64,000 nucleotides of DNA, from positions 196,341 through 260,340 of the forward strand of contig JBAYIK010000001.1 in assembly GCA_041665625.1 (NCBI GenBank), written 5' to 3'. The notes beneath the pieces are model-generated. The model searched no databases, was not told the DNA's origin, and saw only the letters and a list, made by a program, of their open reading frames with translations. Positions 2,547 to 20,581 of the stretch are shown here, one piece after another. This DNA is from Minisyncoccota bacterium (lineage in GTDB: Bacteria; Patescibacteriota; Minisyncoccia; Phycocordibacterales; XYD1-FULL-46-19). The translations under genes and the position numbers were made by a program. Numbering within the stretch: position 1 is the stretch's first letter; each line of letters opens with the position of its first letter.

Positions 2547-4304
2547 ATGGAAACGCCACTGGAAACGATGCAGATGGACATAGGTCTTTTGTTTGTCTTC
2601 GCCGCGCTGTTCGGGCTAATCTTCAAGATAGCTCGGCAGCCCATGATCCCCGCCTTCGTCTTGGCTGGGGTTATCGCTGGTCCGCTCGGCCTCGGCTGGG
2701 TGACCAGAGTGGAGACAACCTACGACCTTTCCGAAATCGCGGTCACGATCATGCTGTTCGTGATCGGGATCGAGATGGATTTGAGCCGACTAAAGAAATT
2801 GGGGCTGGTCGCCGTTGGTGGCGGACTGCTCCAAGTCCTCATCACTGGGGTCATCGGCTTCGGTCTGGCCAAAGTCTTAGGAATGAGCTACATCGCCGGT
2901 TTCTATATAGGCGCGGCGGTATCATTCTCGTCGACAATGTTGGTCGTCAAGGTGTTGGGTGAGAAGTATGACCTGAACACCCTCTACGGGCGCATCAGTA
3001 TAGGTATCCTAGTGATGCAAGACGTGCTGGCGATCTTCGCCCTGTCAGCCCTGACCACCGCTGACAACTTCTCATTCGACGAGCTCTTGTCGCGAGGCAC
3101 TGCGGCAGCGGGGTTGATACTCCTGATCGTCTTCGTTTGTGGGCAATGGGTTTTCCCGCGCCTGTTCAAATGTGTGGCCCGGGAAAGAGAGACCCTGTTC
3201 GTTGTCGCCATGGGCCTCGTATTCGTCTGCGCATTCTATGCCACACGGACGAAGTTGACCATGGGCATTGGTTCGTTCCTCGCGGGTCTCTCAATGGCGC
3301 GCCTGGCTTATCAGCATGAGCTGATTGGCGACTTCAAGGCACTGAAGGGGTTCTTCACAGTCCTCTTCTTCGCGGCCTTGGGGTTGCAATTAGCCCCGGC
3401 GACAGAAGGAGCGTCACTCGCATCCTTTGGCCTGGTGATATACAGTCACCTGGCCCTCATCGTCCTGATGAGTGTAGTCGTGATTGTTGTAAAGCCCTTG
3501 CTCGTAATGCTGATCGTCAGTGTGTTCGGCTACGAGCGCTCGTCGGCGTTCAACACGGGTTTGGCCCTCGGCCAGTTGTCGGAGTTTAGCCTGGTGCTCG
3601 TGGCCCAGGGCATAGCCCAGAAACACCTGCCCGCAAATCTGCTACCGCCCTTCATCGTGGTGACGGTCGTATCCATGACCATCTCTTCGTACCTCCTGAA
3701 GTACAATCTGTCGCTCTACCAACGGGTGCGTTCGCACCTCCAGTGGCTCGACAAGTTGGCGTTCTGGAGACAAGCACCACCGGAGCAAGAGACTCCGATA
3801 GAGTGTGACATCATCTTGGCGGGAGTAGACCGTCTGGGCAAATCCGTGGAGCGGGCCTTGAGGGACCGAGGGGACAAGTACATGACCTTCGACCACAACC
3901 CCGATATCTATGGTGACCTGCTAAGAGACGGCGTCCCTTGTCGCTTTGGAGATGTCTGCTGCGAGGAAGTCCGCGACGGAATTGATCTGGCCAAGGTCAA
4001 AACGGTCATCTCGACCATACCAGACGTCAACGACAACGGCGTGCTGCTGAACCACCTGAGGCGGGACAATCCCGAGGCGAATTACGTCGCCATCACGTCC
4101 TCGAACCGGACGGCCCTCGGTCTCTATGAGCGGGGGGTCCACCTCGTCATAGTTACGCACATGCTGGCGGCGGCCGCTCTGGGCTGTGCTCGGGGAGCAA
4201 CTGTCCCCGATCTGAGCATTGAGATGCTCCTCAAGCCCGGCGAAGAGCTCCGGAAGAAGGGGCAGGAACACCGTCAGAGGCTCCTCGAGGAGAGCAAGAA
4301 GTAG
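2547..4304 (+). CDS. monovalent cation:proton antiporter (CPA2/Kef-type) with C-terminal RCK/TrkA-N domain
   Basis: SD GGAAGGAG lies 7 nt before the ATG. About 12 TM helices, then 'ILAGVDRLG' Rossmann-like NAD-binding (TrkA_N). Markedly GC-rich compared with its flanks. Confidence 0.8.
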   Translation: METPLETMQMDIGLLFVFAALFGLIFKIARQPMIPAFVLAGVIAGPLGLGWVTRVETTYDLSEIAVTIMLFVIGIEMDLSRLKKLGLVAVGGGLLQVLITGVIGFGLAKVLGMSYIAGFYIGAAVSFSSTMLVVKVLGEKYDLNTLYGRISIGILVMQDVLAIFALSALTTADNFSFDELLSRGTAAAGLILLIVFVCGQWVFPRLFKCVARERETLFVVAMGLVFVCAFYATRTKLTMGIGSFLAGLSMARLAYQHELIGDFKALKGFFTVLFFAALGLQLAPATEGASLASFGLVIYSHLALIVLMSVVVIVVKPLLVMLIVSVFGYERSSAFNTGLALGQLSEFSLVLVAQGIAQKHLPANLLPPFIVVTVVSMTISSYLLKYNLSLYQRVRSHLQWLDKLAFWRQAPPEQETPIECDIILAGVDRLGKSVERALRDRGDKYMTFDHNPDIYGDLLRDGVPCRFGDVCCEEVRDGIDLAKVKTVISTIPDVNDNGVLLNHLRRDNPEANYVAITSSNRTALGLYERGVHLVIVTHMLAAAALGCARGATVPDLSIEMLLKPGEELRKKGQEHRQRLLEESKK

Positions 4305-7163: not shown

Positions 7164-8018
7164 TTATCTAACGATAACAAGACTATTATCAAAACGGGCC
7201 CAATCAATCAAAAAAGAACGTCGGCTCAACTTCAAGCGACCAGCCGTAGGATCGTTGATGATTAAATAACTTGGATTATCATCATCACCCTCGTAACCAA
7301 TAATCGTTCTCACGTGCTCACCTGTCCAAGCCTTGATGGTTTTGCCTTCAAGCGTCTGCCACGGATCAAAAGTCATGTTACTCTTGGCCACACCCCAATA
7401 AATTACGGGGTGACCCGCCTTAAGTTCGCGGACAATGTCAGCATAAGTAGCACCACTCTGACCCTCACTCTCTGGCCTCCACGCTTGGGCCAAATCTCTA
7501 ATTACCGGCCAATGAACACCATAACCGGTCGTGTTTTGGGCCCCATCGATAGAGCCAACAAACTCTTTGTCTGGATCCCCCCAAATATTACCAATGCGCG
7601 GGGCTGGGTTAATAGGCATAATCTCAATAATGTCACTCTCATTAATTTTTACTCCGACACCGGCCAAAGCCATACGCAAGGCGGCAATTTCACAGGACAA
7701 ACTGTGTTGCTGATAATAGAGCGGGATAGGCAAGACAAATCGATTAACAACGGGTTCTTCAATTTTTATCTCAGGTTTAAGTTCTTTTGTCGTTGTTGAA
7801 CTAAAGGTAGAGAAACTGCCTTCATTTTTAGCTAAAACCGGTTCAGCTTTCAAAACTCGCTTAGTCTTCAGCACTGACTCATCCACCAAAGCTTCAACCC
7901 TTGTCTCTTGATTAAAATAAAGAAAACAAAAAGCCGCCGCCTCGGCGAATAAAATCAAAAAAATAATTAAGACAATTGTTTGTCTTTTCACACTATAATT
8001 ATAAAACAAAATCACCAA
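7164..8018 (-). CDS. membrane-anchored C39-like (Peptidase_C39_2) cysteine-peptidase domain protein
   Basis: N-terminal TM, then 'YYQQHSLSCEIAALRMAL' (catalytic Cys context) and a downstream His, as in YvpB/C39-like proteins. Confidence 0.6.
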   Translation of the reverse strand: MVILFYNYSVKRQTIVLIIFLILFAEAAAFCFLYFNQETRVEALVDESVLKTKRVLKAEPVLAKNEGSFSTFSSTTTKELKPEIKIEEPVVNRFVLPIPLYYQQHSLSCEIAALRMALAGVGVKINESDIIEIMPINPAPRIGNIWGDPDKEFVGSIDGAQNTTGYGVHWPVIRDLAQAWRPESEGQSGATYADIVRELKAGHPVIYWGVAKSNMTFDPWQTLEGKTIKAWTGEHVRTIIGYEGDDDNPSYLIINDPTAGRLKLSRRSFLIDWARFDNSLVIVR

Positions 8019-8574: not shown

Positions 8575-8814
8575 TTATTTAATTAGCTTTAACTTCTCAG
8601 CTCGTGACAATTTCTTCATTTCTGCTTCAGCTTGCGAGGCCAGAGAACGGCCCTTAAATTTTTTGGAGTAAACCAATTTTACCGGGCGACGAGCCGCCGT
8701 ATATTTGGCCCCCAACTTGCCACCATTATGCTCCCCCACTCGCCGCTTAAGATCCGTGGTTATCCCGGTGTAGAGAGTCTTATCAGCGCATTCAAGGATA
8801 TAAAGATAATACAT
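8575..8814 (-). CDS. GIY-YIG nuclease superfamily protein
   Basis: 'YYLYILECADKTLYTGITTDLKRRVGEH' matches the GIY-YIG motif (UPF0213-like). Confidence 0.75.
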   Translation of the reverse strand: MYYLYILECADKTLYTGITTDLKRRVGEHNGGKLGAKYTAARRPVKLVYSKKFKGRSLASQAEAEMKKLSRAEKLKLIK

Positions 8815-8871
8815 CTATTAAATTTAATTATAGCATTGATTTTTAAGATATACTGTGAGAACATTATATAT

Positions 8872-9273
8872 ATGGAATCAATAGAAAGTATCCTAAACAA
8901 TGACTGGCCCGAGAAACGGGCAACAAAAAAAGAGGGGCCAAAGACCGCTTTCGAACTTCTCGCGCAAGAGTTTGATGGAGACATGGACTTAGCCGAGAGA
9001 CGTCTGTCTGATTTTAGAGATAAATCCAGAGGAGATATAAACAATATGACCCCCTCGGGCCGCAAGAGCTGTCGCCTCTATGCAATTATATTCCTAACTC
9101 TCTACCAAGGGACCAAGCAGGGTGGTAAATATTTCTACTCAGGAATCAGCGGGCAAGGAGTAACTCCCCTACTCAATTTTGCCAAAAATGTTATTGCTAA
9201 TACCCCCGAGTTAGAAGCCGAAATTCCTAGCCGCGGATTGGGAGAGCTATTAGCTGACAGAGAGGCAGCCTAA
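8872..9273 (+). CDS. hypothetical protein
   Basis: The ATG at 8872 avoids overlap with the convergent GIY-YIG gene (track ORF from 8632). Confidence 0.45.
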   Translation: MESIESILNNDWPEKRATKKEGPKTAFELLAQEFDGDMDLAERRLSDFRDKSRGDINNMTPSGRKSCRLYAIIFLTLYQGTKQGGKYFYSGISGQGVTPLLNFAKNVIANTPELEAEIPSRGLGELLADREAA

Positions 9274-9283
9274 GAAAATTAGA

Positions 9284-9682
9284 CTAGCGATTGAGATAAG
9301 TAATCGTTAGCTGTAAGACTGTGGCAAAAGAGACCCAAAGAAGATACGGGATCTGGATATAAGTAATCCAGCGAGCATAAGGGAAAATAGCGGCCATGGC
9401 CCAGATGAGGGTGACTAAGACAAGAAGTATATCCGCTGAGGCCAAAAGATTATTCTTCAGACCAAACTGGATGGGAGTAAAAGCAAAATTAAAAACAAGA
9501 TTGAGCAAGAAAGGTAGTGCAATCAAGAGGCCAATCTTCCCTTGCCAAGCCATATAAAAAACTTTGCCAAAAGAGGCTGCAATTAAACAATAGAGAAATG
9601 TCCACACTGGGCCAAAGAGCCAAGCTGGCGGTGACCAAGTGGGTCTAATAATTGTTGAGTACCAATTGTAAGAATTATTCAT
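9284..9682 (-). CDS. tspO: TspO/MBR family tryptophan-rich sensory protein
   Basis: 'RPTWSPPAWLFGPVWTFLY' signature and 5 TM helices. Confidence 0.8.
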   Translation of the reverse strand: MNNSYNWYSTIIRPTWSPPAWLFGPVWTFLYCLIAASFGKVFYMAWQGKIGLLIALPFLLNLVFNFAFTPIQFGLKNNLLASADILLVLVTLIWAMAAIFPYARWITYIQIPYLLWVSFATVLQLTITYLNR

Positions 9683-9683
9683 A

Positions 9684-10052
9684 TTATCTTATTATACTCA
9701 AAATTTTATTCAGCCACAATTGTCGTGGGAGACGACGGAGTTCTTCTCTTATTTCCAAATGATTGGGAAAAGTTTGAGCCACCAAATTCCAAAAATTTGC
9801 CGAGTGATTGAACTCTCGCAAATGGCATAGCTCATGCACAATGATGTAGTCGGCGAGGTGTTCGGGGATTAAAGCAATTTTGTAATTAAAATTTAGATTA
9901 CCACGCGTTGAGCAACTCCCCCACCGCGTCTTCTGATTCCGAATACTAATACGCCTCACCGACACTTGATATATTGGGCTAAAATGTTCAATACGCCGCT
10001 TGGCCAAGGCTCGCGCTGCTTCACGATGTTTTAGATAGTGACTTTTCCGCAT
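9684..10052 (-). CDS. YgjP-like (DUF45) metal-dependent hydrolase
   Basis: 'HELCHLREFNHSANFW' matches the HExxH-containing DUF45/WLM-like motif. Confidence 0.7.
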   Translation of the reverse strand: MRKSHYLKHREAARALAKRRIEHFSPIYQVSVRRISIRNQKTRWGSCSTRGNLNFNYKIALIPEHLADYIIVHELCHLREFNHSANFWNLVAQTFPNHLEIREELRRLPRQLWLNKILSIIR

Positions 10053-12057: not shown

Positions 12058-12456
12058 CTAGAAGACAATCTTGCTCGCGATAAAATAAGTTATGACGGAG
12101 ACAGAGGCAGCCAAGACCGCACCCCAGGCCAAATCAACAATTGTTACCAAGAGGGGCCAATCTTTAGTGAGCGCCAAATTAGTAAGATCATAAGTGGCAT
12201 AAGTGATAAGTCCGAAGAGTGCTCCCAAAAGTAATGCCGAGAGCCACGACCCCTTTTCCACCGCCGGGGTGATGACAAAAATAACTAAGCCAACAATGAA
12301 TAAGAGATAAAAGATAATTGCCGCCGCCCAATTGACGTTACTCTTCATTAAGAAGCCAATCTGAGCCCGATAGAAATCCTTGGCGACAAGCCCAACCCAG
12401 AGCATGTCGAGAGCAAAGAAAACTGGTAGAGCAATAGCATAAAGTTTTATAAACAT
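12058..12456 (-). CDS. DUF2177-like membrane protein
   Basis: 132 aa with 4 TM helices. Leaderless-type TATAAT lies 7 nt before the ATG. Confidence 0.55.
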   Translation of the reverse strand: MFIKLYAIALPVFFALDMLWVGLVAKDFYRAQIGFLMKSNVNWAAAIIFYLLFIVGLVIFVITPAVEKGSWLSALLLGALFGLITYATYDLTNLALTKDWPLLVTIVDLAWGAVLAASVSVITYFIASKIVF

Positions 12457-12502
12457 ATTTATATTATACTCCCCCGTTTAGCCAGCGCCAATGAGATATC
12501 AA

Positions 12503-12533
12503 CATCCCAACAAACTCCAGTTTGTAAGGGTGT
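12503..12533. repeat. copy 1 of a 34-bp conserved element (CATCCCAACAAACTCCAGTTTGTAAGGRTGT)
   Basis: Contains the inverted repeat ACAAACT-CC-AGTTTGT. It lies about 45-75 bp upstream of the -10 of gene 12058..12456. Confidence 0.7.
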
Positions 12534-12554
12534 CATATAAAAAAATAAAAAAGC

Positions 12555-12860
12555 TTAAGATAACGAGCGGAAAGTCTTTAAAAAATCAACAAAAATTTTG
12601 CCATAAGGAGAGAGCTCATGCAAAACAAATTTGCCTTGATACTTCTTGTTAACCAAGCCGGCGACATTGAGTCGTCTCGTATGCTCCCCGATCGTCTTCT
12701 CGTTGGCCTTAATCAATTCAATAATCTCCTCGAGTGTAATCCGCGGGTGGGCAGCAATAGCCAGAAGAATCTCGATGCGATAGTGATTGGCCAAACCCTT
12801 CAGATGTCGCTCCATCTGTTTGGAAGTTTTGAACTTATTCATGTCAATATTATACACCAA
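12555..12860 (-). CDS. ArsR/SmtB-family HTH transcriptional regulator
   Basis: 'HLKGLANHYRIEILLAIAAHPRITLEEI...GEHTRRLNVAGLV' is a winged-HTH ArsR signature. The track start is TTG. An ATG at 12843 lies 6 nt after a TATAAT box, giving a leaderless transcript. Confidence 0.7.
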   Translation of the reverse strand: MVYNIDMNKFKTSKQMERHLKGLANHYRIEILLAIAAHPRITLEEIIELIKANEKTIGEHTRRLNVAGLVNKKYQGKFVLHELSPYGKIFVDFLKTFRSLS

Positions 12861-12872
12861 AGCTGTTTCTTC

Positions 12873-12906
12873 TCATACCAACAAACTCCAGTTTGTAAGG
12901 ATGTTT
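12873..12906. repeat. copy 2 of the 34-bp element, overlapping the -35 region of the ArsR-like gene promoter
   Basis: TCATACCAACAAACTCCAGTTTGTAAGGATGTTT. Its position is what an autoregulatory operator would occupy. Confidence 0.7.
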
Positions 12907-12915
12907 AAAATTTGG

Positions 12916-13419
12916 TTATTTATAGATGGCGATGAGTTGGCGGAGGATGAGTGATTGAGGGGTGATCTCGTGGCCAGAGAAATCAAACCAAACTCGCAAG
13001 AAATCTTCTCGTTTAATTTTTCTTTCTCCGCCAAGCTCCGGATCTTGAAGATAGATATAATCGTCATCCAGACCCGACACCACTGAGTAATGACCGTCGG
13101 GCACCTCCGAATCATCATAATCTTGTCGCCCCCGAGTGAACCAATTCACAATGACCGGTGTCCCCTTCTCGAGCCACTCCTCAATCTCCGCAAAACTGCT
13201 CTCAGTCTTAATCTCCGCCCTGAAGCCAAGAGACTCTGCCGCCCGGACGATATCTTTGTCGCTAACGCCAAGATCAGAGACCAGACCCGTCAGCTCGGCC
13301 AATTCTTTCTCCGTCTTCTCAACTCCATAATAATCCAAGACAATCTTAAGCGAAGCCGGCCCGCACATCCCCGCATGCAAGGTTTCTTGAAAAGGTTTAA
13401 TGGCTAGATGTTTGTTCAT
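12916..13419 (-). CDS. C39-like (Peptidase_C39_2) cysteine-peptidase domain protein
   Basis: 'HAGMCGPASLKIVLDYYG' (Cys), '...DGHYSVVSGLDD' (His), 167 aa. GGGG SD supplied by the upstream repeat element. Confidence 0.6.
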   Translation of the reverse strand: MNKHLAIKPFQETLHAGMCGPASLKIVLDYYGVEKTEKELAELTGLVSDLGVSDKDIVRAAESLGFRAEIKTESSFAEIEEWLEKGTPVIVNWFTRGRQDYDDSEVPDGHYSVVSGLDDDYIYLQDPELGGERKIKREDFLRVWFDFSGHEITPQSLILRQLIAIYK

Positions 13420-13472
13420 TTTTTTCCCCGAAGTCGTATCTCGCGTAGCCAGATCCGACTTCTTAGCTTAAC
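13420..13472. repeat. short copy of the intergenic element 'CCCCGAAGTCGTA..(loop)..ATCCGACTTCTTAGCTTAA'
   Basis: 7-bp inverted repeat GAAGTCG/CGACTTC. The minus-strand orientation gives 'GGGGAAAAAAATG' providing SD and start for 12916..13419. Related copies at 15121 and 16423. Confidence 0.6.
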
Positions 13473-13864
13473 ATTTTATAATATTCGGGATAACTTTTCT
13501 TAATAAAATTCTTCCAACAAGCTGTCTCATTACCATGACCTAAATCTTTTTTCCCATAGACAAGAAGGACTCTTACAACCCCCTTGTCTTTATGAAGAGC
13601 GACAATGCACCGATTGCCAGAACCGTGTCTTGACTCTTGAGTTCCGGAAATTTTAAATTCTGTCTTACAAATAACGATATCTGCATCTTTATCTGTTATC
13701 GGCTCAGCAATACTCTTCAAAAATAGGGCGTCAATCTTCTCAAATTCCTCAGCGATAGTCCCAAGTGTAAAGTCCCAAGCTCCCTTATACTTCTTAGCAA
13801 AAGATTTTATAAAGTGCCTCTCCGCAAAAGGCTCGAAGATAACTCTATACTTAGTAAACCTCAT
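13463..13864 (-). CDS. putative toxin partner of the Panacea-domain antitoxin (small protein, unknown family)
   Basis: About 134 aa from 'MRFTKYRVIFEPF...', overlapping the 3' end of the upstream HTH-Panacea gene by about 14 nt. The track ORF runs to 13912. Confidence 0.45.
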   Translation of the reverse strand: MRFTKYRVIFEPFAERHFIKSFAKKYKGAWDFTLGTIAEEFEKIDALFLKSIAEPITDKDADIVICKTEFKISGTQESRHGSGNRCIVALHKDKGVVRVLLVYGKKDLGHGNETACWKNFIKKSYPEYYKMLS

Positions 13865-14534
13865 GAGGATCTTCCTGTGTAATAAGAGCGTAAGAGACAA
13901 TTTCTTCATCATCAGCCATTAAATATGGCAGTTGGTTATGAGTAAAATTAACAATTTCGGCTGTTTTTTTATCTTTCCACTTTCTATGAATTTCTTTCAT
14001 TAAGTTTTCTTCCTCAGGCAAAATAGATTCTAACTTTTGTTTTTTATTACTATCTGACTCACTAATTATAATCATTTCTTTGCCATCAGCGTTCTTGCGG
14101 TCAACGATTATCTTTCCTTCTTCCTCAAGCTCATCAAGGGCTCGAAAATAAGAATCTGGAACTGGCCCATATTTAATTTTACGATACTGCATACCACTCA
14201 TGCTATTCAAATGACTATAAAACCAGGCAAAATCAGAGAGATAGACAAGTTTGGCCAATTTAGTCTTTTTAACACTTTTACCCAATCGGAGAAAAGACAG
14301 GATCATCTGCTTATATTTCTCGTAATTAGGAGACTCACCCTTCTCCATCTCTTCGAAAGGTATATTTAAAATGCCTGAGAGTTTTTCAAATTCACTCATA
14401 GACAGCTCTCTCTTCCCCTGTTCAATGGCAATATAAGAAGGACGAGAAAGACCCAATTTAGAGGCTAAGTCTAATTGGGAGAGACCTTTCTTAAGTCGAG
14501 AGGCTTTAATCAGCTTCGCGTACTTAGTAATCAT
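13851..14534 (-). CDS. HTH_XRE plus Panacea (DUF4065, SocA-like) domain protein, antitoxin-like
   Basis: 'LSQLDLASKLGLSRPSYIAIEQGKR' is Cro/C1 HTH. 'KLAKLVYLSDFAWFYSHLNSMSGMQYRKIKYGPVPD' is the Panacea signature. ATG at 14534 has a TATACT box 12 nt upstream (track ORF to 14696). Confidence 0.65.
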   Translation of the reverse strand: MITKYAKLIKASRLKKGLSQLDLASKLGLSRPSYIAIEQGKRELSMSEFEKLSGILNIPFEEMEKGESPNYEKYKQMILSFLRLGKSVKKTKLAKLVYLSDFAWFYSHLNSMSGMQYRKIKYGPVPDSYFRALDELEEEGKIIVDRKNADGKEMIIISESDSNKKQKLESILPEEENLMKEIHRKWKDKKTAEIVNFTHNQLPYLMADDEEIVSYALITQEDPHEVY

Positions 14535-14781
14535 ATACCAATAAGTATACATAAACGTGTAAATAATGCAAACATAGGTGTTGATAAGTTTGACATAAAA
14601 AATAAACGGAGTAAAATTTATAGAGGAGAGAGCCTTTTTGCGGAAATCCTCTCCCCTAAAACATAAATATCTTTTTTGCCCTTTGGGGTATTTCAACTAA
14701 ACTAATAAGTAAAAACTTTAACACTTTTATTTTACCAAATTTAGATTAATTAATAAACAAGGGTAACTAACCAAACATTCA

Positions 14782-14982
14782 ATGCCTTATTACACTCGTA
14801 ATACCGGCAAATCGTGGACACCAAAAGATGTGACGCAGTTAAAACAGCTCGTTCGTCAAAATACACCAACACGAGTCGCCGGATTCAAACTTGGCAGAAC
14901 TGAAGATGCGGTCAGAGCAGAGGCCAGTAAACTCTCCCTCAGCTTAAAGCCAACAAACCAGTCGCCGCACAATAGAAAGTAG
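14782..14982 (+). CDS. small putative DNA-binding (HTH-like) protein
   Basis: 66 aa. '...WTPKDVTQLKQLVRQNTPTRVAGFKLGRTEDAVRAEASKL' resembles sigma-70 region-4/terminase-small-subunit-like HTH. Its own terminator follows. Confidence 0.45.
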   Translation: MPYYTRNTGKSWTPKDVTQLKQLVRQNTPTRVAGFKLGRTEDAVRAEASKLSLSLKPTNQSPHNRK

Positions 14983-14996
14983 ACCTTAAATTTGAA

Positions 14997-15037
14997 AAGA
15001 AAGAACGAGACCGCAACTCGTTCTTTCTATTTTTTTA
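14997..15037 (+). terminator. intrinsic terminator
   Basis: AAGAACGAG-ACCGCAA-CTCGTTCTT then TCTATTTTTTTAT. Confidence 0.7.
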
Positions 15038-15068
15038 TCTATAATTTATGAGACTAACCTCAGTCTCC

Positions 15069-15102
15069 TCATCCCAACAAACTCCAGTTTGTAAAGATGT
15101 TT
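15069..15102. repeat. copy 3 of the 34-bp element
   Basis: TCATCCCAACAAACTCCAGTTTGTAAAGATGTTT. Confidence 0.7.
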
Positions 15103-15120
15103 AGGCGTTTTTCTTTCTTC

Positions 15121-15140
15121 TCCCCTTTTCCCCGAAGTGA
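15121..15140. repeat. partial copy of the 'CCCCTTTTCCCCGAAGT' element
   Basis: Matches the 5' part of the elements at 13420 and 16423. Confidence 0.45.
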
Positions 15141-15202
15141 GTTTTAGTTGTTATGACACATTTTACCCTTGAGACGAGGCCTGACCTCGTTTCTCTAATA
15201 AA

Positions 15203-16342
15203 TTAATCTGCTATATCAATATCAGGGATATCTCCATAATACTGGAGTGCCCGAAGTATTGCCGGAAAAAGGGTGGAATCAGATACCGGATGCATGACAA
15301 AAGGAGGGAGAGCTTGCAAGTTCTGTCCAGAAGAAGCCTTCTCGTCAGCCTGGTAATGAAAAGAGAAATTAGTGAAATACAACGCATTCCAAGCAGAAGG
15401 ATTTTCTTTTGTAACATTTTTGGAATGAGAGGCATTTTTAAAGATATTTTTCACCCACGGTATCTTTTTAAAATCCCCTGATTCTTCATGTGGTACATTT
15501 ATATCAACAAAGACAAGAAAAGGCATCTTGCCACACTCTGTTTTTTTAAAGGCCTGGTTAAGGAGACGTTGGATACCTCCGCCATTAATTTTGGACCCAT
15601 TAACATCTCCTGGGGTATGAAGGATTCCAGGCCTGTGCCTACTTTTAGCTTCGACGGCGATTTCTACTCCTGACTCTTGATGTGTGGCAATAAATTCACA
15701 ATGTGGCTCTGAATGGTCTTCTTCATCTAGCCATCTTATATTAAAACCTAATCGCGCAATGATTGCAGCAATCATAATTTCGTATCTTGCCCCTTGATAT
15801 TCTAACGGCGTTTTAAGACGACCAAGAAGAAAGTCAGGTATTCTAGAAACATGTCTTAGTGTTGAAATATCAAAAGCAAGAGAAATTAAAGATTTAGTCC
15901 ACCCGTTTGGAGGAGCCTCTAATACGCCAGGGGTTTTATAATTAGGTTTAGCCAAGAGTTCTTTTTTCCATTCATCAAATTTCAAAAAACATTTCACAAT
16001 AAAATGTTGATCTTCCCACAACAGAGACTGTTGCTCATTAATCCATTCGAAACTCAAAGTATCTTTAAGAATAAATTGAATAAAATCATGAAAGGTCTCA
16101 TCAGAATTTTCGCTAAGATATACTTGATTACCAATTGCCCAGACTTTTTTCCCTTTGTGAATTACCGGGTTAACATAATTAATATAAATCCCTTTTTGCT
16201 TAAGAAGATTTTCTTTTTCTCGTATTTTTTTAAAATGTAAGAGTACTTCCATGGGAACAGGTGAGTTATCTTCATCCATATGACATTTTTTATATTTCTT
16301 ACCACTTCCACAGTGGCAAAGCTGGTTTCTTCCTAATTTCAT
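15203..16342 (-). CDS. SEC-C metal-binding motif protein with possible PD-(D/E)xK nuclease-like core
   Basis: N-terminal 'CHCGSGKKYKKCH' (SEC-C). The central 'EPHCEFIATHQESGVEIAVEAKSRH' resembles an E..ExK restriction-endonuclease-like signature. No other recognised domain. Confidence 0.55.
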   Translation of the reverse strand: MKLGRNQLCHCGSGKKYKKCHMDEDNSPVPMEVLLHFKKIREKENLLKQKGIYINYVNPVIHKGKKVWAIGNQVYLSENSDETFHDFIQFILKDTLSFEWINEQQSLLWEDQHFIVKCFLKFDEWKKELLAKPNYKTPGVLEAPPNGWTKSLISLAFDISTLRHVSRIPDFLLGRLKTPLEYQGARYEIMIAAIIARLGFNIRWLDEEDHSEPHCEFIATHQESGVEIAVEAKSRHRPGILHTPGDVNGSKINGGGIQRLLNQAFKKTECGKMPFLVFVDINVPHEESGDFKKIPWVKNIFKNASHSKNVTKENPSAWNALYFTNFSFHYQADEKASSGQNLQALPPFVMHPVSDSTLFPAILRALQYYGDIPDIDIAD

Positions 16343-16422
16343 AATAATTTATTTTTTAATCATGTCCTCACAACACACCACGTTGTTCAACAGAATTGAA
16401 TCAATGGGAACGACCCCATTAA

Positions 16423-16541
16423 TCCCCTTTTCCCCGAAGTCGTACTTCAAGCGCTTGCCCTGCGCCGTGCCGGCCATAGCTTTAGCGAAGACTAGAAGCT
16501 TCGGTGAAGTAGGGAGCTCGAAATCCGACTTCTTAGCTTAA
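16423..16541. repeat. long copy of the intergenic element (same ends as 13420..13472, with an extra internal segment of about 75 nt)
   Basis: 'CCCCTTTTCCCCGAAGTCGTA' ... 'ATCCGACTTCTTAGCTTAA'. Lies between the methyltransferase and SEC-C genes. Confidence 0.6.
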
Positions 16542-17812
16542 GAAACAAAATCCAAGAGAGACTTTCCAAGCCTCTCAATAACTCCAACGACCAGAGCATT
16601 ACCCATAATAAAGGCTCTTTTTGTGTCTGGGGTAACTTTTCCATTTAACATAAATTTTGTGTGGTCAGAAGGAAACATGTTTAACTTCTCCAACTCAAGT
16701 GGGGTAAGCCGGCGAAGCCTGCCAGATTTAGTCTTAATGACGTGTTTAAAGCGCGAGGGAGAACTTCCACCTTCCCCCGTCACAATTGTTCTGGATGGCT
16801 TATCAAGAGAATCAGGAAAAGCCATTGGGCCTTCTGAGTAATCATATTCAAACCCATCTTTTGATTTCCGCCCCTCTTTCTTTCCACCTTTTAAATATTC
16901 CCATCTTTTTTGATCAGCCTTTTTTATAAAAAATTCTTCTGGAATTTTTGCTTCGTCGTGAATAATAATATTTTTAAGTAAAATAGACTTACCATTATAA
17001 TTAGGCACAGATTTTACTGAGTAGACTTTTCTATCAATCATAACTCCGGAAACATCAAAAGGGCTTTTAGTTGGTTTATTTGAAGAAAAATTCTTAGATA
17101 TTTCCTCCAGACTTCCCTCAATTCTAAATTCGCCCAATTTACCTTCACCTTTTTTCACAGGGAAAGCTTTAGCAATTACTCCATCTTTGTAAATCCAATT
17201 TTCAAGATTTTTTTCTTTTTTAATAGCATTAAAAATCTTACTGCCTTTTTTATACCCCATAATAAAAACTCTTCTCCTTCTTTGCGGCATCCCGTAATCG
17301 GCCGCATTTACAACCCTCCATTCAACTGCATAACCAAGATAAGAAAGAGAGGTCAGCATAACAGCAAAATCTCGACCTCTCTGTCCTGAAGGGGATTTTA
17401 ATAATCTATCGACATTCTCTAACATTAAAAAGTTCGGGGAATTTTTTCCTTTTTTATTTAAGATATTATAAATAGACCACCATAAAACACCTTTCTTACC
17501 ATAGATACCCTTAGCCTGGTTCGCTGTTCTCGCAACAGAATAATCCTGACAAGGAAATCCCCCGACAAGTAAATCATGGTCAGGTATTTCTTTAAATTTA
17601 TTTTCAACGACATCTTGGATATCTTCACAAGAATGTCCCTCTTCTCCAAATATGTTTATATAAATCTGAGAAGCATGTTGTGTAGCTGCCCCTGGTTCCC
17701 ATTGGCTATTCCATACTGTCTCATATTTTAAGTCTTTTTTACTTGCAGCATCAAGGCCAAGGCGGAAGCCCCCAACACCGGCAAAAAGCTCAAGGACTCT
17801 TATTTTCTTCAT
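16538..17812 (-). CDS. DNA (cytosine-5)-methyltransferase
   Basis: Motif I 'LFAGVGGFRLGL', motif IV 'GGFPCQDYS', motif VI 'ENVDRLL'. Adjacent to a Sau3AI-like endonuclease. Confidence 0.85.
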   Translation of the reverse strand: MKKIRVLELFAGVGGFRLGLDAASKKDLKYETVWNSQWEPGAATQHASQIYINIFGEEGHSCEDIQDVVENKFKEIPDHDLLVGGFPCQDYSVARTANQAKGIYGKKGVLWWSIYNILNKKGKNSPNFLMLENVDRLLKSPSGQRGRDFAVMLTSLSYLGYAVEWRVVNAADYGMPQRRRRVFIMGYKKGSKIFNAIKKEKNLENWIYKDGVIAKAFPVKKGEGKLGEFRIEGSLEEISKNFSSNKPTKSPFDVSGVMIDRKVYSVKSVPNYNGKSILLKNIIIHDEAKIPEEFFIKKADQKRWEYLKGGKKEGRKSKDGFEYDYSEGPMAFPDSLDKPSRTIVTGEGGSSPSRFKHVIKTKSGRLRRLTPLELEKLNMFPSDHTKFMLNGKVTPDTKRAFIMGNALVVGVIERLGKSLLDFVS

Positions 17813-17843
17813 AAAGAGATTCTAACAGATAGCGTCAAAAAGA

Positions 17844-19247
17844 TCAATATTGATCTTTTTGGTTTTCTATGGCCTGCTGTATATACTTAGCATTTAACCA
17901 AAAACACCGTTTCATTTCCTGTGTTTTTTGGGGAGTTTCAATGGTATCTGTACTGTCTTTCCCGTGAGGTCGAACGTGGGCAACAGGACTTTCCTTCATT
18001 TTTGGCAAATCTTCGTACCGACCATCCTTAATACAATCAACTGTTTTTTGCCAGACCTTTTCTACCTCACCAATGTCTTTCATCGGAAAATTCCAGAAGA
18101 AGGTTTTCTTCAATATTATATTTTTACTCCTCTTTTCCTTTTGAAAAACGACAAATAAAAACTTCTTTGTCTCCAGCTGTAAATGAAACTCGGCCATAGT
18201 TTCGTCTTCTTCGTCAAACCACAAATCATTTACTAAACTTTTGTAGTCGAATGCAGGAAAAGAAATAGATTCTCTTAGTGTCCCGGTGTGTTCAAGAGTA
18301 ATGACTCTAAGTGTAATGTTGGCCTTCTCTAATTCCTCTACATTATTTGATTCAACGTCTAATATCCTGTTAACAATTAATCTTTTGTAACTCTTTGATT
18401 TTTTGCCGAGACTTGAATTTAACTTAGCTAGTATCTCCGTGTCTGTTTTGCCAATAAATTGGCTAAATTTTTCTTTAACAACATCTTCAATTGTTTCAAT
18501 TCTCCGGTGTTTCTTAAAGATTGAGTCAGTATTTGTTTTTTCTCCAAGCAGTTTAGTCTGAATAAGGTAATTGATATATTGCTGTTTAAAAGAAAAGGCT
18601 CTCGGTTTCGCAGCGATGCGCCCCATCGGCTGATCCCTAACAACTCGGCTATTAGCCGCTTTAGTGCAAGCTCCCAGATAATAAGTATCTCCCTCAGAGA
18701 GCAAGTGGGCTTCCCCTCGTTTAATCTTATTTACTATATATTCCCAGTCTTTTTTAATCTGAAAAACATCTTCGTCGGAAATATCCTCAAGGAGCTTCAG
18801 CAAATGGACAAACTTGAACTCATAATCAAGGATACTTTGACTTTCAATCCAAAGATAGAACATCAGTAGTAAAGTTTTATTCTTTTTTAGGAAAGAGCTT
18901 TGTTCCCAGGTCTCACCGACAACGGTATCATAATTAATCATTGAAAAGACGAGACGCTCCTTAGAGGAGAGCTTACCGGTGTTGTGTTTTTTTAGAGGAG
19001 TAGTCTTCAGCTCAACACTCGCAACAGTAAAATCTGGTTCACTTATATTACCTGGATTGATTTCGAAAAAATATTTTTCCATTAAATCACCCAAAAAACC
19101 TTTGCGTTTCAATCCGTACCCACCAATTTGTTCTTCAATTGCCCCGAGACTTCCAGAAGGGATGACTTGGCGCAAAGACTTTTGCAAAATAGTCTTTGCT
19201 TTCTCTAAAACCTGTTCTTTTGTGTTATATGTTTGAGACATGTTCAA
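17844..19247 (-). CDS. Sau3AI/MutH-family type II restriction endonuclease (GATC-type predicted)
   Basis: 'EPDFTVASVELKTTPLKKHNTGKLSSKERLVFSMINYD', 'EAHLLSEGDTYYLGACTKAANSRVVRDQPMGRIAAKPRAFSFK' and C-terminal 'HVRPH...FWLN' parallel the MutH/Sau3AI catalytic and duplicated domains as I recall them. Confidence 0.7.
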   Translation of the reverse strand: MNMSQTYNTKEQVLEKAKTILQKSLRQVIPSGSLGAIEEQIGGYGLKRKGFLGDLMEKYFFEINPGNISEPDFTVASVELKTTPLKKHNTGKLSSKERLVFSMINYDTVVGETWEQSSFLKKNKTLLLMFYLWIESQSILDYEFKFVHLLKLLEDISDEDVFQIKKDWEYIVNKIKRGEAHLLSEGDTYYLGACTKAANSRVVRDQPMGRIAAKPRAFSFKQQYINYLIQTKLLGEKTNTDSIFKKHRRIETIEDVVKEKFSQFIGKTDTEILAKLNSSLGKKSKSYKRLIVNRILDVESNNVEELEKANITLRVITLEHTGTLRESISFPAFDYKSLVNDLWFDEEDETMAEFHLQLETKKFLFVVFQKEKRSKNIILKKTFFWNFPMKDIGEVEKVWQKTVDCIKDGRYEDLPKMKESPVAHVRPHGKDSTDTIETPQKTQEMKRCFWLNAKYIQQAIENQKDQY

Positions 19248-19900
19248 ATATTAGAAATAAAACTTGCCGACAAAGTTTTAGAAACCACAACATGATCAAC
19301 GACTTTAATGTCTAAGATTTTCCCCGCACTGATTAGCTTCTTAGTAACCTCGATGTCATCAGCGGAGGGTTCAAGGTCGCCAGAGGGATGATTATGAGAA
19401 ATTATAATTGAAGAGGCGTTATTTTTAATGGCTCCCTCAAAGACTTCTCGAGGATGAACAAGGCTTTCATTAAGAGTGCCAATTGAAATAATATCTCTTT
19501 GTATTTCTTGGTTACGGCTATCCAGGTAAAAAACAACAAAGTGCTCCTTTTTGCTTCCCCTTATGTCCTCCATCCTCTCCCAGACATCTTTTGGGGAAAG
19601 TAATATAGAGGATTTCTTGTCTTTCAACATCCTTTTGCCAAGCTCAAAACAGGCCATAATTTCACAAGCTTTTGCCGAACCTAGGCCATGGATAGTTTTT
19701 AATTCATCAATACTTATATCAACAAATTTTTCGTTTTCAAATTTCTGTAAGATTTTTTGAGCTAGTTTTAGCACATTCAAATCTTTTGTACCAGTACGAA
19801 GCAAAATCGCCAGCAATTCGACGTCAGATAATTTGCCCGGACCATACTTTTCCATCTTCTCTCTTGGTCTATCAACACGGGGTAAATCCTTAATTTTCAT
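19244..19900 (-). CDS. radC: RadC-like JAB/MPN domain protein
   Basis: 'HNHPSGDLEPSADDIEVTKKL' is the JAMM motif. HhH-like N-terminus. Confidence 0.8.
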   Translation of the reverse strand: MKIKDLPRVDRPREKMEKYGPGKLSDVELLAILLRTGTKDLNVLKLAQKILQKFENEKFVDISIDELKTIHGLGSAKACEIMACFELGKRMLKDKKSSILLSPKDVWERMEDIRGSKKEHFVVFYLDSRNQEIQRDIISIGTLNESLVHPREVFEGAIKNNASSIIISHNHPSGDLEPSADDIEVTKKLISAGKILDIKVVDHVVVSKTLSASFISNI

Positions 19901-19996
19901 AATTTATTTTCCTATTCTACCACATTTCTCGCCTTTTTACGATAAACCAAAACACCCCCGAAGGGAAGGGTGTTTTGAGTAAGTACCTAGAATTAT

Positions 19997-20293
19997 CTAG
20001 ATTACCTTCCAGAGAAATTTACGATAAGCGGGAGAGAGGTCCGCCCAAGATTTAAAGGCTTTATATTGAGCAATGGATTGTTGAGAATTTTTTGAATCAA
20101 TCGTCTCAATCTCAATAACGACTTCAGCATTCCCATTCCGTACGTAAACATCAGGAATATAGCCATTAATAACTGGCGGTTTATTGTTTCCGGGCAAATC
20201 CGAATAAACAACAGGCCAACCAGCACGAACATATTGAGAAGCAATATTTGCCACTTCAGTATCGTGGATAACTTGATTTTCTTTTGGTCTCAT
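19997..20293 (-). CDS. hypothetical small protein (weak PD-(D/E)xK-like 'IPDVYV...EVVIEIE')
   Basis: 98 aa with a flanking hairpin terminator at 19945-19975. Function unknown. Confidence 0.4.
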   Translation of the reverse strand: MRPKENQVIHDTEVANIASQYVRAGWPVVYSDLPGNNKPPVINGYIPDVYVRNGNAEVVIEIETIDSKNSQQSIAQYKAFKSWADLSPAYRKFLWKVI

Positions 20294-20334
20294 TAGGTTT
20301 ATAATTAGTTTGTTATTTAGGTTCTTCCGACCTT

Positions 20335-20380: not shown

Positions 20381-20581
20381 AAAATTTAGTTTTTGAACTT
20401 ATAGCGTGATCGAAAGCAATAGGGTGGGCTTTTTACGTAAAAAATAACGCTTAGAGTCACCTTCGATAATTCTTTGATAAATTGTAGAAGAACTTATGGA
20501 TCCATTATAAAAACAACGATAAATAGCCCCTTTTGGGGACAAAATGTTCATAAAAAGGGACTATCCCAACAAATATTGAAT

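Follow-up and report, generated by a model that had tools for sequence, protein, structure and literature searches.

The 64,000-nt stretch of contig JBAYIK010000001.1 from a Minisyncoccota bacterium that we analyzed (hereafter the window) carries three copies of a palindromic element, S1, S2, and S3, at and near the gene of a 95-amino-acid (95-aa) winged-helix protein. This gene (12555-12842, minus strand) encodes a predicted repressor, an assignment for which Pfam, NCBIfam, PDB, AlphaFold2 (AF2), and Foldseek were used. The three copies are likewise assigned to the minus strand. S1 (12502-12535) follows the stop codon of the repressor gene (12555), and 10 nt separate it from the downstream -35 element of a gene for a DUF2177 membrane protein (12058-12456, minus strand; Pfam DUF2177, E=3e-46). 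S2 (12873-12906), the predicted autoregulatory operator, has its center at 12888/12889, 46 nt before the repressor ATG, and S3 (15069-15102) is an orphan copy between the stop codon of a gene for a SEC-C-motif protein (15203) and a bidirectional terminator (14998-15038). We suggest that S1 to S3 are very likely operators, that is, double-stranded DNA sites for the 95-aa ArsR-fold protein, and we hold the individual roles of S1 and S3 with less confidence than this assignment.

Read on the plus strand, the 30-nt cores of the palindrome stand in direct orientation at 12503-12532, 12874-12903, and 15070-15099. Three copies of a 34-bp element had been claimed from the sequence alone. These copies are real, with zero expected by chance, and only the start of the first had to be moved 1 nt earlier (12502); the 34-mer aligns at 12502-12535 (4 mismatches), 12873-12906 (1 mismatch), and 15069-15102 (1 mismatch). 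The 22-mer CCAACAAACTCCAGTTTGTAAG has three matches in the window at one mismatch or less, against 0.00 expected from 100 shuffles. When the window was scanned with a position weight matrix (PWM) made from sites of other genomes, the three copies scored 43-48 bits and all other positions no more than 6 bits, and the best score in 50 shuffled windows was 8 bits. S1 to S3 are the sole such sites within the 64-kb window. The core inverted repeat ACAAACT-CC-AGTTTGT, as described earlier, was found to be correct on inspection of the window copies, and the palindrome extends beyond it (CATCC-CA-ACAAACT / AGTTTGT-AA-GGATG, with two A.A mismatches). The perfect form of the inverted repeat is TACCAACAAACT-CC-AGTTTGTTGGTA, with arms conserved to +/-15, and each site consists of two 13-15-bp arms (CAT[A/C]C[C/T][A/T]A-CAAACT) flanking an asymmetric center of 2-4 bp. 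An 11-nt "half-copy" (ATCCCAACAAA at 20563) that had been placed at the far edge of an island is a chance match: in simulated 64-kb sequences with the dinucleotide composition of the window, 1.7 11-mers of the element turn up on average, 70% of the simulations contain one or more, and the real window has two such matches, at 7555 and 20563. No Rfam 15 family reached its gathering score over the sites, and a search of 12400-16600 at the E-value threshold gave just two chance-level hits, both away from the sites.

The distribution of the element was examined by scanning the 18-mer CAACAAACTCCAGTTTGT against one genome per species, which returned 72 loci compared with about 17 expected by chance. 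Around 36 of them belong to Patescibacteria, the candidate phyla radiation (CPR), including Paceibacterota, Vogel-, Sungii-, Nomura-, Moran-, and Tagabacteria as well as Saccharibacteria, and several carry two to four copies. At the patescibacterial loci the arms lengthen to a 30-38-bp palindrome, aACATACCAACAAACT-SS-AGTTTGTTGGTATGTt; the non-CPR matches comprise the core alone and lie within coding sequence. At least 16 of the patescibacterial loci encode a homologue of the 95-aa protein (55-90% identity) right next to the site. In the reciprocal test, 80 metagenome loci were chosen solely by homology to the 95-aa protein. A site was present upstream of the repressor gene in all 77 testable loci, and a second one just past its stop codon in 76 of 79, two of the three misses being sites split by an insertion. 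The distance from the stop codon to the center of this 3' copy is 15-18 nt in 45 of the 76, and in most loci the copy starts 0-5 nt past the stop. The spacing of the two flanking sites is tight, with its mode at 335 bp, but it tracks gene length, and the helical-phase vector strength is only 0.3-0.4; the idea that DNA loops between the two sites was therefore dropped. The loci compared had flanks of at most 10 kb, and antisense open reading frames (ORFs) of the regulator gene (families F1-F4) were left out. The closest relative of the window among these loci is a metagenome-assembled genome (MAG) of Candidatus Vogelbacteria (L013).

The protein family is large and conserved, with at least 1761 clusters at 90% identity, 70-77% identity across classes, and an essentially invariant recognition helix, NEKTIGEHTRRL. 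Where the protein diverges, the palindrome does as well. The gene of a homologue of 54% identity with the helix NVKTISEHTRRL (L034) is flanked on either side by ACATTCT-TG-AGAATGT, and a paralogue of 38% identity (L017) has TTCTGCAGAA in the promoter spacer and a half-site at the stop codon. Diverged homologues therefore have diverged palindromes in the same place, which is co-variation of the two.

The upstream sites stand in a fixed register to the promoter of the regulator gene. The canonical unit can be written AACATCCTTACAAACTT/GAGAATGTAAGGATGTtGTG-TATAAT-6 nt-ATG, in which the central hexamer of the palindrome, TTGAGA or CTGGAG, occupies the place of the -35 element and the proximal arm forms the spacer. 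Of 77 loci, 38 have the center 32 nt before the ATG and 63 have it 30-36 nt before, and a -10 element (at least 5/6 matches, TGnTATAAT extended) was found at offset +20/21 in 58 of 63 distinct upstream sites. The asymmetric center points along the gene in 76 of 79 promoters of the winged helix-turn-helix (wHTH) gene (TTGA/TGGA vs TCCA). Since the ATG follows the -10 element by 6 nt in canonical promoters, the repressor mRNA is probably leaderless. In the window, the repressor starts at the ATG at 12842 and not at the TTG at 12860. Its promoter, ATGAGA-16-(TG)TATAAT (12876-12849, minus strand), ends 6 nt before this ATG and is overlapped at the -35 by S2, as the sequence-only reading had stated.

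The fold of the 95-aa protein was examined by sequence and by structure. Pfam HTH_5 gave an E value of 2e-4 and 21.6 bits, just short of the cut-off of 22, and the NCBIfam ArsR/SmtB model NF033788 gave 35.1 bits, short of its cut-off of 55; a phmmer search against PDB found ArsR at E=3e-4, and many homologues have a precomputed PF01022 hit. The AF2 model has a predicted local distance difference test (pLDDT) score of 87 and the topology a1-a2-a3-aR-b1-b2-a5, and the top Foldseek matches were CadC, SmtB, YgaV, and SqrR, with TM scores of 0.72-0.76. As judged from the model and these matches, the protein has the ArsR/SmtB fold and belongs to a divergent branch. In an alignment of 23 homologues there was not a single Cys, and a5 had no conserved His, Asp, or Glu ligands; none of the described metal or thiol sensory sites, a3N (CXC) and a5 (DxHx10Hx2E) among them, was found in the family. 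The conserved His residues are H13, H20, H54, and H75.

The proposal that the copies are operators of the adjacent ArsR-like repressor and make up a small regulon, already put forward by the sequence-only reading, is strongly favored by the comparison, because of the near-universal association of sites with both flanks of the gene, the fixed -35/-10/ATG geometry, the orientation that follows the gene, and the co-variation of palindrome and protein. It is also backed by the ArsR/SmtB fold of the protein, and the copy number at the regulator is low (three sites in 64 kb and one to four exact cores per MAG). We suggest that a dimer of the 95-aa protein would bind each palindrome with one subunit per half-site, and that the bound protein would cover the -35 element and the spacer and exclude RNA polymerase, so that the gene would be under negative autoregulation. 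The 3' copy would be a second operator, which may double as an RNA hairpin or terminator and may co-regulate the next gene where this is close.

It has been reported that ArsR/SmtB proteins bind 12-2-12 inverted repeats overlapping promoters (PMC8790569). In agreement with the autorepressors of this family, the element has arms of at least 12 bp, a center of 2 bp, a position over the -35 and spacer, and one to few sites per genome. Like SmtB, CzrA, CadC, and AzuR/AztR, the 95-aa protein is a small winged-helix protein with a1-a2-a3-aR-b1-b2-a5 topology; these proteins are homodimeric, and a dimer is predicted here. Unlike them, it has no Cys and no a3N or a5 ligands, and it scores below the family cut-offs. 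The operator sequences are also unrelated (ACAAACT-SS-AGTTTGT here versus the TGAACA-NN-TGTTCA type), genes for metal efflux or metallothionein are not among the targets, and a second copy stands at the stop codon in nearly every locus. In fold, size, predicted autoregulation, and the lack of metal sensing, the protein resembles PagR, HlyU, SqrR/BigR, SdpR, and YgaV, and such non-metal ArsR-fold regulators are among the top structural and NCBIfam matches. However, SqrR, BigR, and HlyU use Cys pairs, of which the 95-aa protein has none, and we found no operator sequence or target genes that it has in common with the non-metal regulators.

The three copies in the window differ in their likely roles. 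S2 is, by its position, the predicted autoregulatory operator of the 95-aa protein gene. The clade of the window and three other loci (L013, L031, and L063) has 14-23 nt inserted between the palindrome and the -10 element, and the centers in these three loci are at -46 to -55 compared with the canonical -32. This insertion places the center of S2 at -46, 14 nt farther upstream than the canonical position, with the proximal arm nevertheless over the -35-like ATGAGA. S1 corresponds to the 3'-flank copy seen family-wide, and the DUF2177 promoter, 10 nt away, may come under its influence. That promoter, TTGGCG-17-TATAAT (12491-12463, minus strand), was recognized by the promoter scan 6 nt before the ATG at 12456; the earlier statement that copy 1 lies upstream of it was confirmed. 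The DUF2177 gene is a candidate second target of the repressor. The center of S1 lies 61 nt before its ATG, and we speculate that a center near -61 would suit an activator too.

S3 might be explained by comparison with L013, in which the center of a site is 39 nt before the ATG of a C39-peptidase gene. The S3 flank GAGGAGACTGAGGT matches the L013 sequence between this site and that ATG, and the C39 region of the window has 92.6% nucleotide identity to L013 3037-3607. The homology near S3 ends at the former -10, about 13 nt outside the element, and S3 is parted from the C39 gene by a 1.6-kb module of low GC content (13463-15045) that contains the terminator, a small ORF, the HTH-Panacea gene, and the gene of a 149-aa protein. 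We suggest that S3 is the former operator of the C39-peptidase gene, displaced by the insertion of this toxin-antitoxin-like module. The C39 gene of the window is preceded by a Shine-Dalgarno-like GGGGA and is probably co-transcribed with the upstream module.

Several points weigh against the proposal that the copies are operators. The protein does not reach the curated thresholds of Pfam and NCBIfam and is without the known ArsR/SmtB sensory sites, and its binding and repression are deduced from comparative sequence evidence. S2 alone has a position suited to repression. With respect to the DUF2177 promoter, S1 extends from about -80 to -47, which makes direct occlusion of this promoter doubtful, and S3 has neither a -10 element nor an ORF downstream. 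Among the 3' copies a -10 element accompanies just 8 of 63, so that a role as promoter-operator of the next gene is not general. The arm types within a site are partly concordant, above what independence would give (61/29/8/22). Finally, GC-rich hairpins are inserted precisely at the center of sites in four loci (L078, L144, L113, and L112); such a split destroys the dimer site and spares the hairpin stem, which hints at an added role as single strand or RNA.

These last points raise the alternative that the palindromes are chiefly RNA or single-stranded DNA hairpins, terminators or insulators bracketing the gene, whose sequence conservation is incidental or comes from homogenization of the copies. 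The upstream and downstream copies of one locus are indeed more alike than copies between loci (0.79 vs 0.72; 0 of 2000 permutations reached 0.79), but terminator stems vary across phyla, and here the 14-nt core and the arms are common to Saccharibacteria through Paceibacteria. Relatives with perfect palindromes reach about -20 kcal/mol with z scores of -5 to -7.6 and are followed by U-rich tails, and in three loci (L055, L066, and L050) copies lie between convergent genes with A/T-tract flanks; the window copies as RNA, by contrast, have z scores of -0.8 to -2.5, are no more stable than shuffles, and have no U-run. The place of the 3' copy directly past the stop codon, usually without a -10 element, suits a terminator, whereas the upstream copy lies 5' of the transcription start and hence outside the gene's own mRNA, and upstream and downstream copies have equal palindromicity. 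The two variants of the half-site, CCAACA and CCTTACA, are found in every homo- and hetero-combination, 37 of 120 distinct sites (31%), the three copies of the window among them, are hybrids with 2x2 internal mismatches, and around 40% of sites have unpaired inner positions that improve the -35 match (TTGAGA). Since hybrids are common, pairing of arm with arm is not required, which favors recognition of half-sites by a protein subunit; the concordance of arm types, for its part, is confounded by lineage effects. Splits were found at 3' or extra copies only (four sites) and never at the autoregulatory copy. We therefore consider it unlikely that the palindromes act mainly as hairpins; it is plausible that the 3' copy serves in addition as a terminator or insulator, which would not replace its operator function.

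It has also been proposed that the copies are attC-like or dif-like recombination sites that delimit mobile cassettes, with a recombinase elsewhere. The homology of the repressor unit to L013, L063, and L031 does start and stop at the outer edges of the sites while the flanking genes differ, and accessory modules (the Panacea module and restriction-modification genes) abut S3; like integron attC and Xer dif sites, the copies are imperfect palindromes at gene boundaries of a variable region. However, no integrase or recombinase was found within +/-10 kb (window positions 9.2-23.5 kb scanned, plus 20 kb of the ENA annotation of the 293-kb metagenome contig that holds the window), and an element of 30-34 bp with a 2-nt center is unlike either type of site. 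attC sites are 57-141 nt long with R''(RYYYAAC) and R'(GTTRRRY) cores, IntI and attI/Pc are adjacent, and the cassettes are mostly promoterless; here the element has 30-34 nt, its left TCCCAAC/TACCAAC and its right-arm GTTTGTA fit neither core, and the flanked units have their own -10 and -35 promoters. dif sites have two 11-bp arms around a central region of 6-8 bp, and dif modules have alternating site orientation, whereas the central region here spans 2 nt, or 4 nt at the most, and the three copies share one orientation. The site position is locked to the -35, -10, and ATG in 77 loci, and with the half-copy explained by chance, the idea of a cassette array was not upheld. The comparison of junctions with a relative that had been recommended for this question places the breakpoint between the window and L013 beside S3 and not inside it. 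One possible exception is an extra 224-bp unit of L013 exactly between two copies, which is what homologous recombination between direct repeats of about 40 bp would yield. We regard recombination sites as highly improbable. Hardly any probability remains for a mobile repeat resembling miniature inverted-repeat transposable elements or repetitive extragenic palindromes that has spread through CPR genomes. Such a repeat would be palindromic, intergenic, and multi-copy in many lineages, as the element is, but the three copies in 64 kb are all within 2.6 kb of the regulator, assemblies have one to four exact cores, the copies have neither target-site duplications nor variable flanks, the register to promoter elements and to the start and stop codons of the regulator is constant, and none of 60 matches to the 16-nt core in viral contigs has extended arms. 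That some other protein binds the sites, be it a transcription factor or an alternative sigma factor, with the wHTH gene merely the commonest target, is more conceivable but still very unlikely. Operator binding by the 95-aa protein is itself predicted, and a membrane-anchored HTH_11 protein is also flanked by two sites in L007; against this, the link of both flanks to one gene family holds in essentially every locus while other neighbors vary, the palindrome shifts along with the recognition helix of the protein, and dyad symmetry suits a homodimeric wHTH protein and not a sigma factor.

Two other origins of the element were considered and rejected. All 60 core matches in viral contigs had PWM scores below 18 bits and are, by a rough estimate, due to chance, which speaks against a phage-borne element. 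A fragment of a tRNA or tmRNA gene acting as an att site was ruled out, the sole tRNA of the window being at 32.7 kb.

In CPR bacteria (Patescibacteria), whose genomes are tiny, transcription factors are very scarce, and to our knowledge almost none of these factors has an assigned binding site. In the literature searched, the coverage of which is incomplete, there was no paper with the motif and none on an ArsR-like CPR regulon. The repressor-palindrome unit, which is conserved across the CPR, is an ordinary kind of gene switch that is apparently undescribed for these bacteria. It pairs one CPR factor with its predicted operator from sequence alone, and the pairing brings a promoter model in which the -35 is part of the palindrome, the -10 is of the extended type, and the start is leaderless. 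For culturable CPR bacteria, such as Saccharibacteria in co-culture, it offers a testable switch and a reporter, and it gives annotators a motif with which to predict regulon members in thousands of MAGs. The three repeats of the window can be explained without a new type of mobile element.

When all loci are taken together, an ORF starts 15-120 nt downstream of 173 of the 226 sense-oriented sites. Besides the regulator, the most frequent site-proximal gene is TspO, at about 11 loci. The others include genes for small GIY-YIG proteins, MGMT-like DNA-binding proteins, NUDIX and MazG-like hydrolases, UvrC, pyrimidine-dimer glycosylase, DUF2779/PD-(D/E)XK and SNase nucleases, TfoX_N, YgjP-like proteins, DUF2177, C39 peptidase, and GroES, among others. 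By these raw counts, the DNA-repair or photo-oxidative flavor of the set is suggestive; the set is heterogeneous. In flavor only, the regulon resembles those of the LexA SOS box and of DdrO/RDRM in Deinococcus, in which a palindrome stands before the regulator and before scattered genes of repair type. Unlike LexA and DdrO, the 95-aa protein has another fold, neither autocleavage nor a partner protease is evident, and the regulon is heterogeneous and mostly local. The gene functions suggest a possible link to DNA damage or photo-oxidative stress. It may even be speculated that the site-gene-site unit is the hub of a Patescibacteria-wide stress regulon, a functional analogue of SOS or photo-oxidative responses for bacteria with very few regulators. 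In it, an ArsR-fold repressor lacking a ligand site would govern TspO and a shifting set of repair and nucleotide-sanitizing genes (UvrC, pyrimidine-dimer glycosylase, GIY-YIG, MGMT-like, NUDIX/MazG), while the palindromes would double as terminators or insulators and mark favored points for the gain and loss of accessory modules. We think this rather unlikely.

In the window itself, genes for TspO, a YgjP-like protein, and a small GIY-YIG protein lie at 8575-10052, no more than 4 kb from the repressor and with no detectable site; the same families are predicted to be directly controlled by sites in other CPR genomes. The HTH_11 protein of L007 (57-500, 113 aa) that is flanked by two palindromes is also found near the repressor in L144 (4450-4743), L117 (48-305), L073 (1-84), and L109 (5839-5961), and it may be a second regulator of the same circuit. 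In L072 (4782-4821), a palindrome of 43 bits lies inside an ORF for a 694-aa UvrA-like protein, where it may act as an internal promoter-operator or may have been inserted in frame. The sites split at the center are at L078 4289-4350, L144 4291-4380, L113 1603-1665, and L112 269-330. Their insertions are related, GC rich, and 32-60 nt long with the consensus GCCTgCCCgTCCGTAGC..GCGaAGGaGG, and the split sites form a long composite hairpin (-45 kcal/mol in L144).

The other features around the sites are as follows. A terminator lies beyond the DUF2177 gene at 11746-11720 (promoter/terminator scan). Upstream of the repressor, on the minus strand, are the genes of the C39-like cysteine peptidase (12916-13419; Pfam Peptidase_C39_2, E=5e-15), the 149-aa protein (13463-13912; no family hit), and a protein with HTH_3 and SocA/Panacea domains (13851-14552). 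A 66-aa ORF (14782-14982) is on the plus strand. Past S3, the SEC-C-motif gene (15203-16342) and, from 16538 onward, genes for a C5 methyltransferase, a MutH/Sau3AI-like nuclease, RadC, and an AHJR-like protein are again on the minus strand. The block 13463-20300 has a low GC content (0.365-0.39, versus about 0.44 elsewhere in the window) and is absent from L013. It contains the HTH-XRE/Panacea (SocA-like) antitoxin-type gene with its 149-aa partner, the SEC-C-motif protein, the C5 methyltransferase with the MutH/Sau3AI-like nuclease, RadC, and the AHJR-like nuclease, and looks like a defense or accessory island. Shared ancestry of the 149-aa protein of the window and a 232-aa protein of L013, considered as the source of a common 56-nt flank, was rejected, as the two have no homology.

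L013 also has a micro-unit between two sites (2880-3050, minus strand), beside the gene of the C39-like, bacteriocin-processing-type peptidase. It comprises TTGACG-17-TATAAT, a Shine-Dalgarno sequence, an ORF of 17 codons (MRSPRHEALHAQDCCALL), and a strong terminator, and it is absent from the window. Unrelated to the palindrome, a second repeat specific to this lineage, with the minus-strand sequence T-TAA-GCTAAGAAGTCGGAT...(loop of 19 or about 105 nt)...ACGACTTCGGGGAAAA(GGGGAG), was found at window positions 13422-13467, 16428-16540, and 15103-15138 and at L013 3688-3745. It starts at the stop codons of the 149-aa protein gene and of the C5 methyltransferase gene; a copy reduced to a 3' part is found immediately upstream of S3, and the one in L013 is upstream of the S4 site of that locus. 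Its 13-mer TTTTCCCCGAAGT has three exact matches against 0.26 expected, and none in the other 211 loci. This repeat could be an intercistronic hairpin with a ribosome-binding site or a small element at module boundaries.

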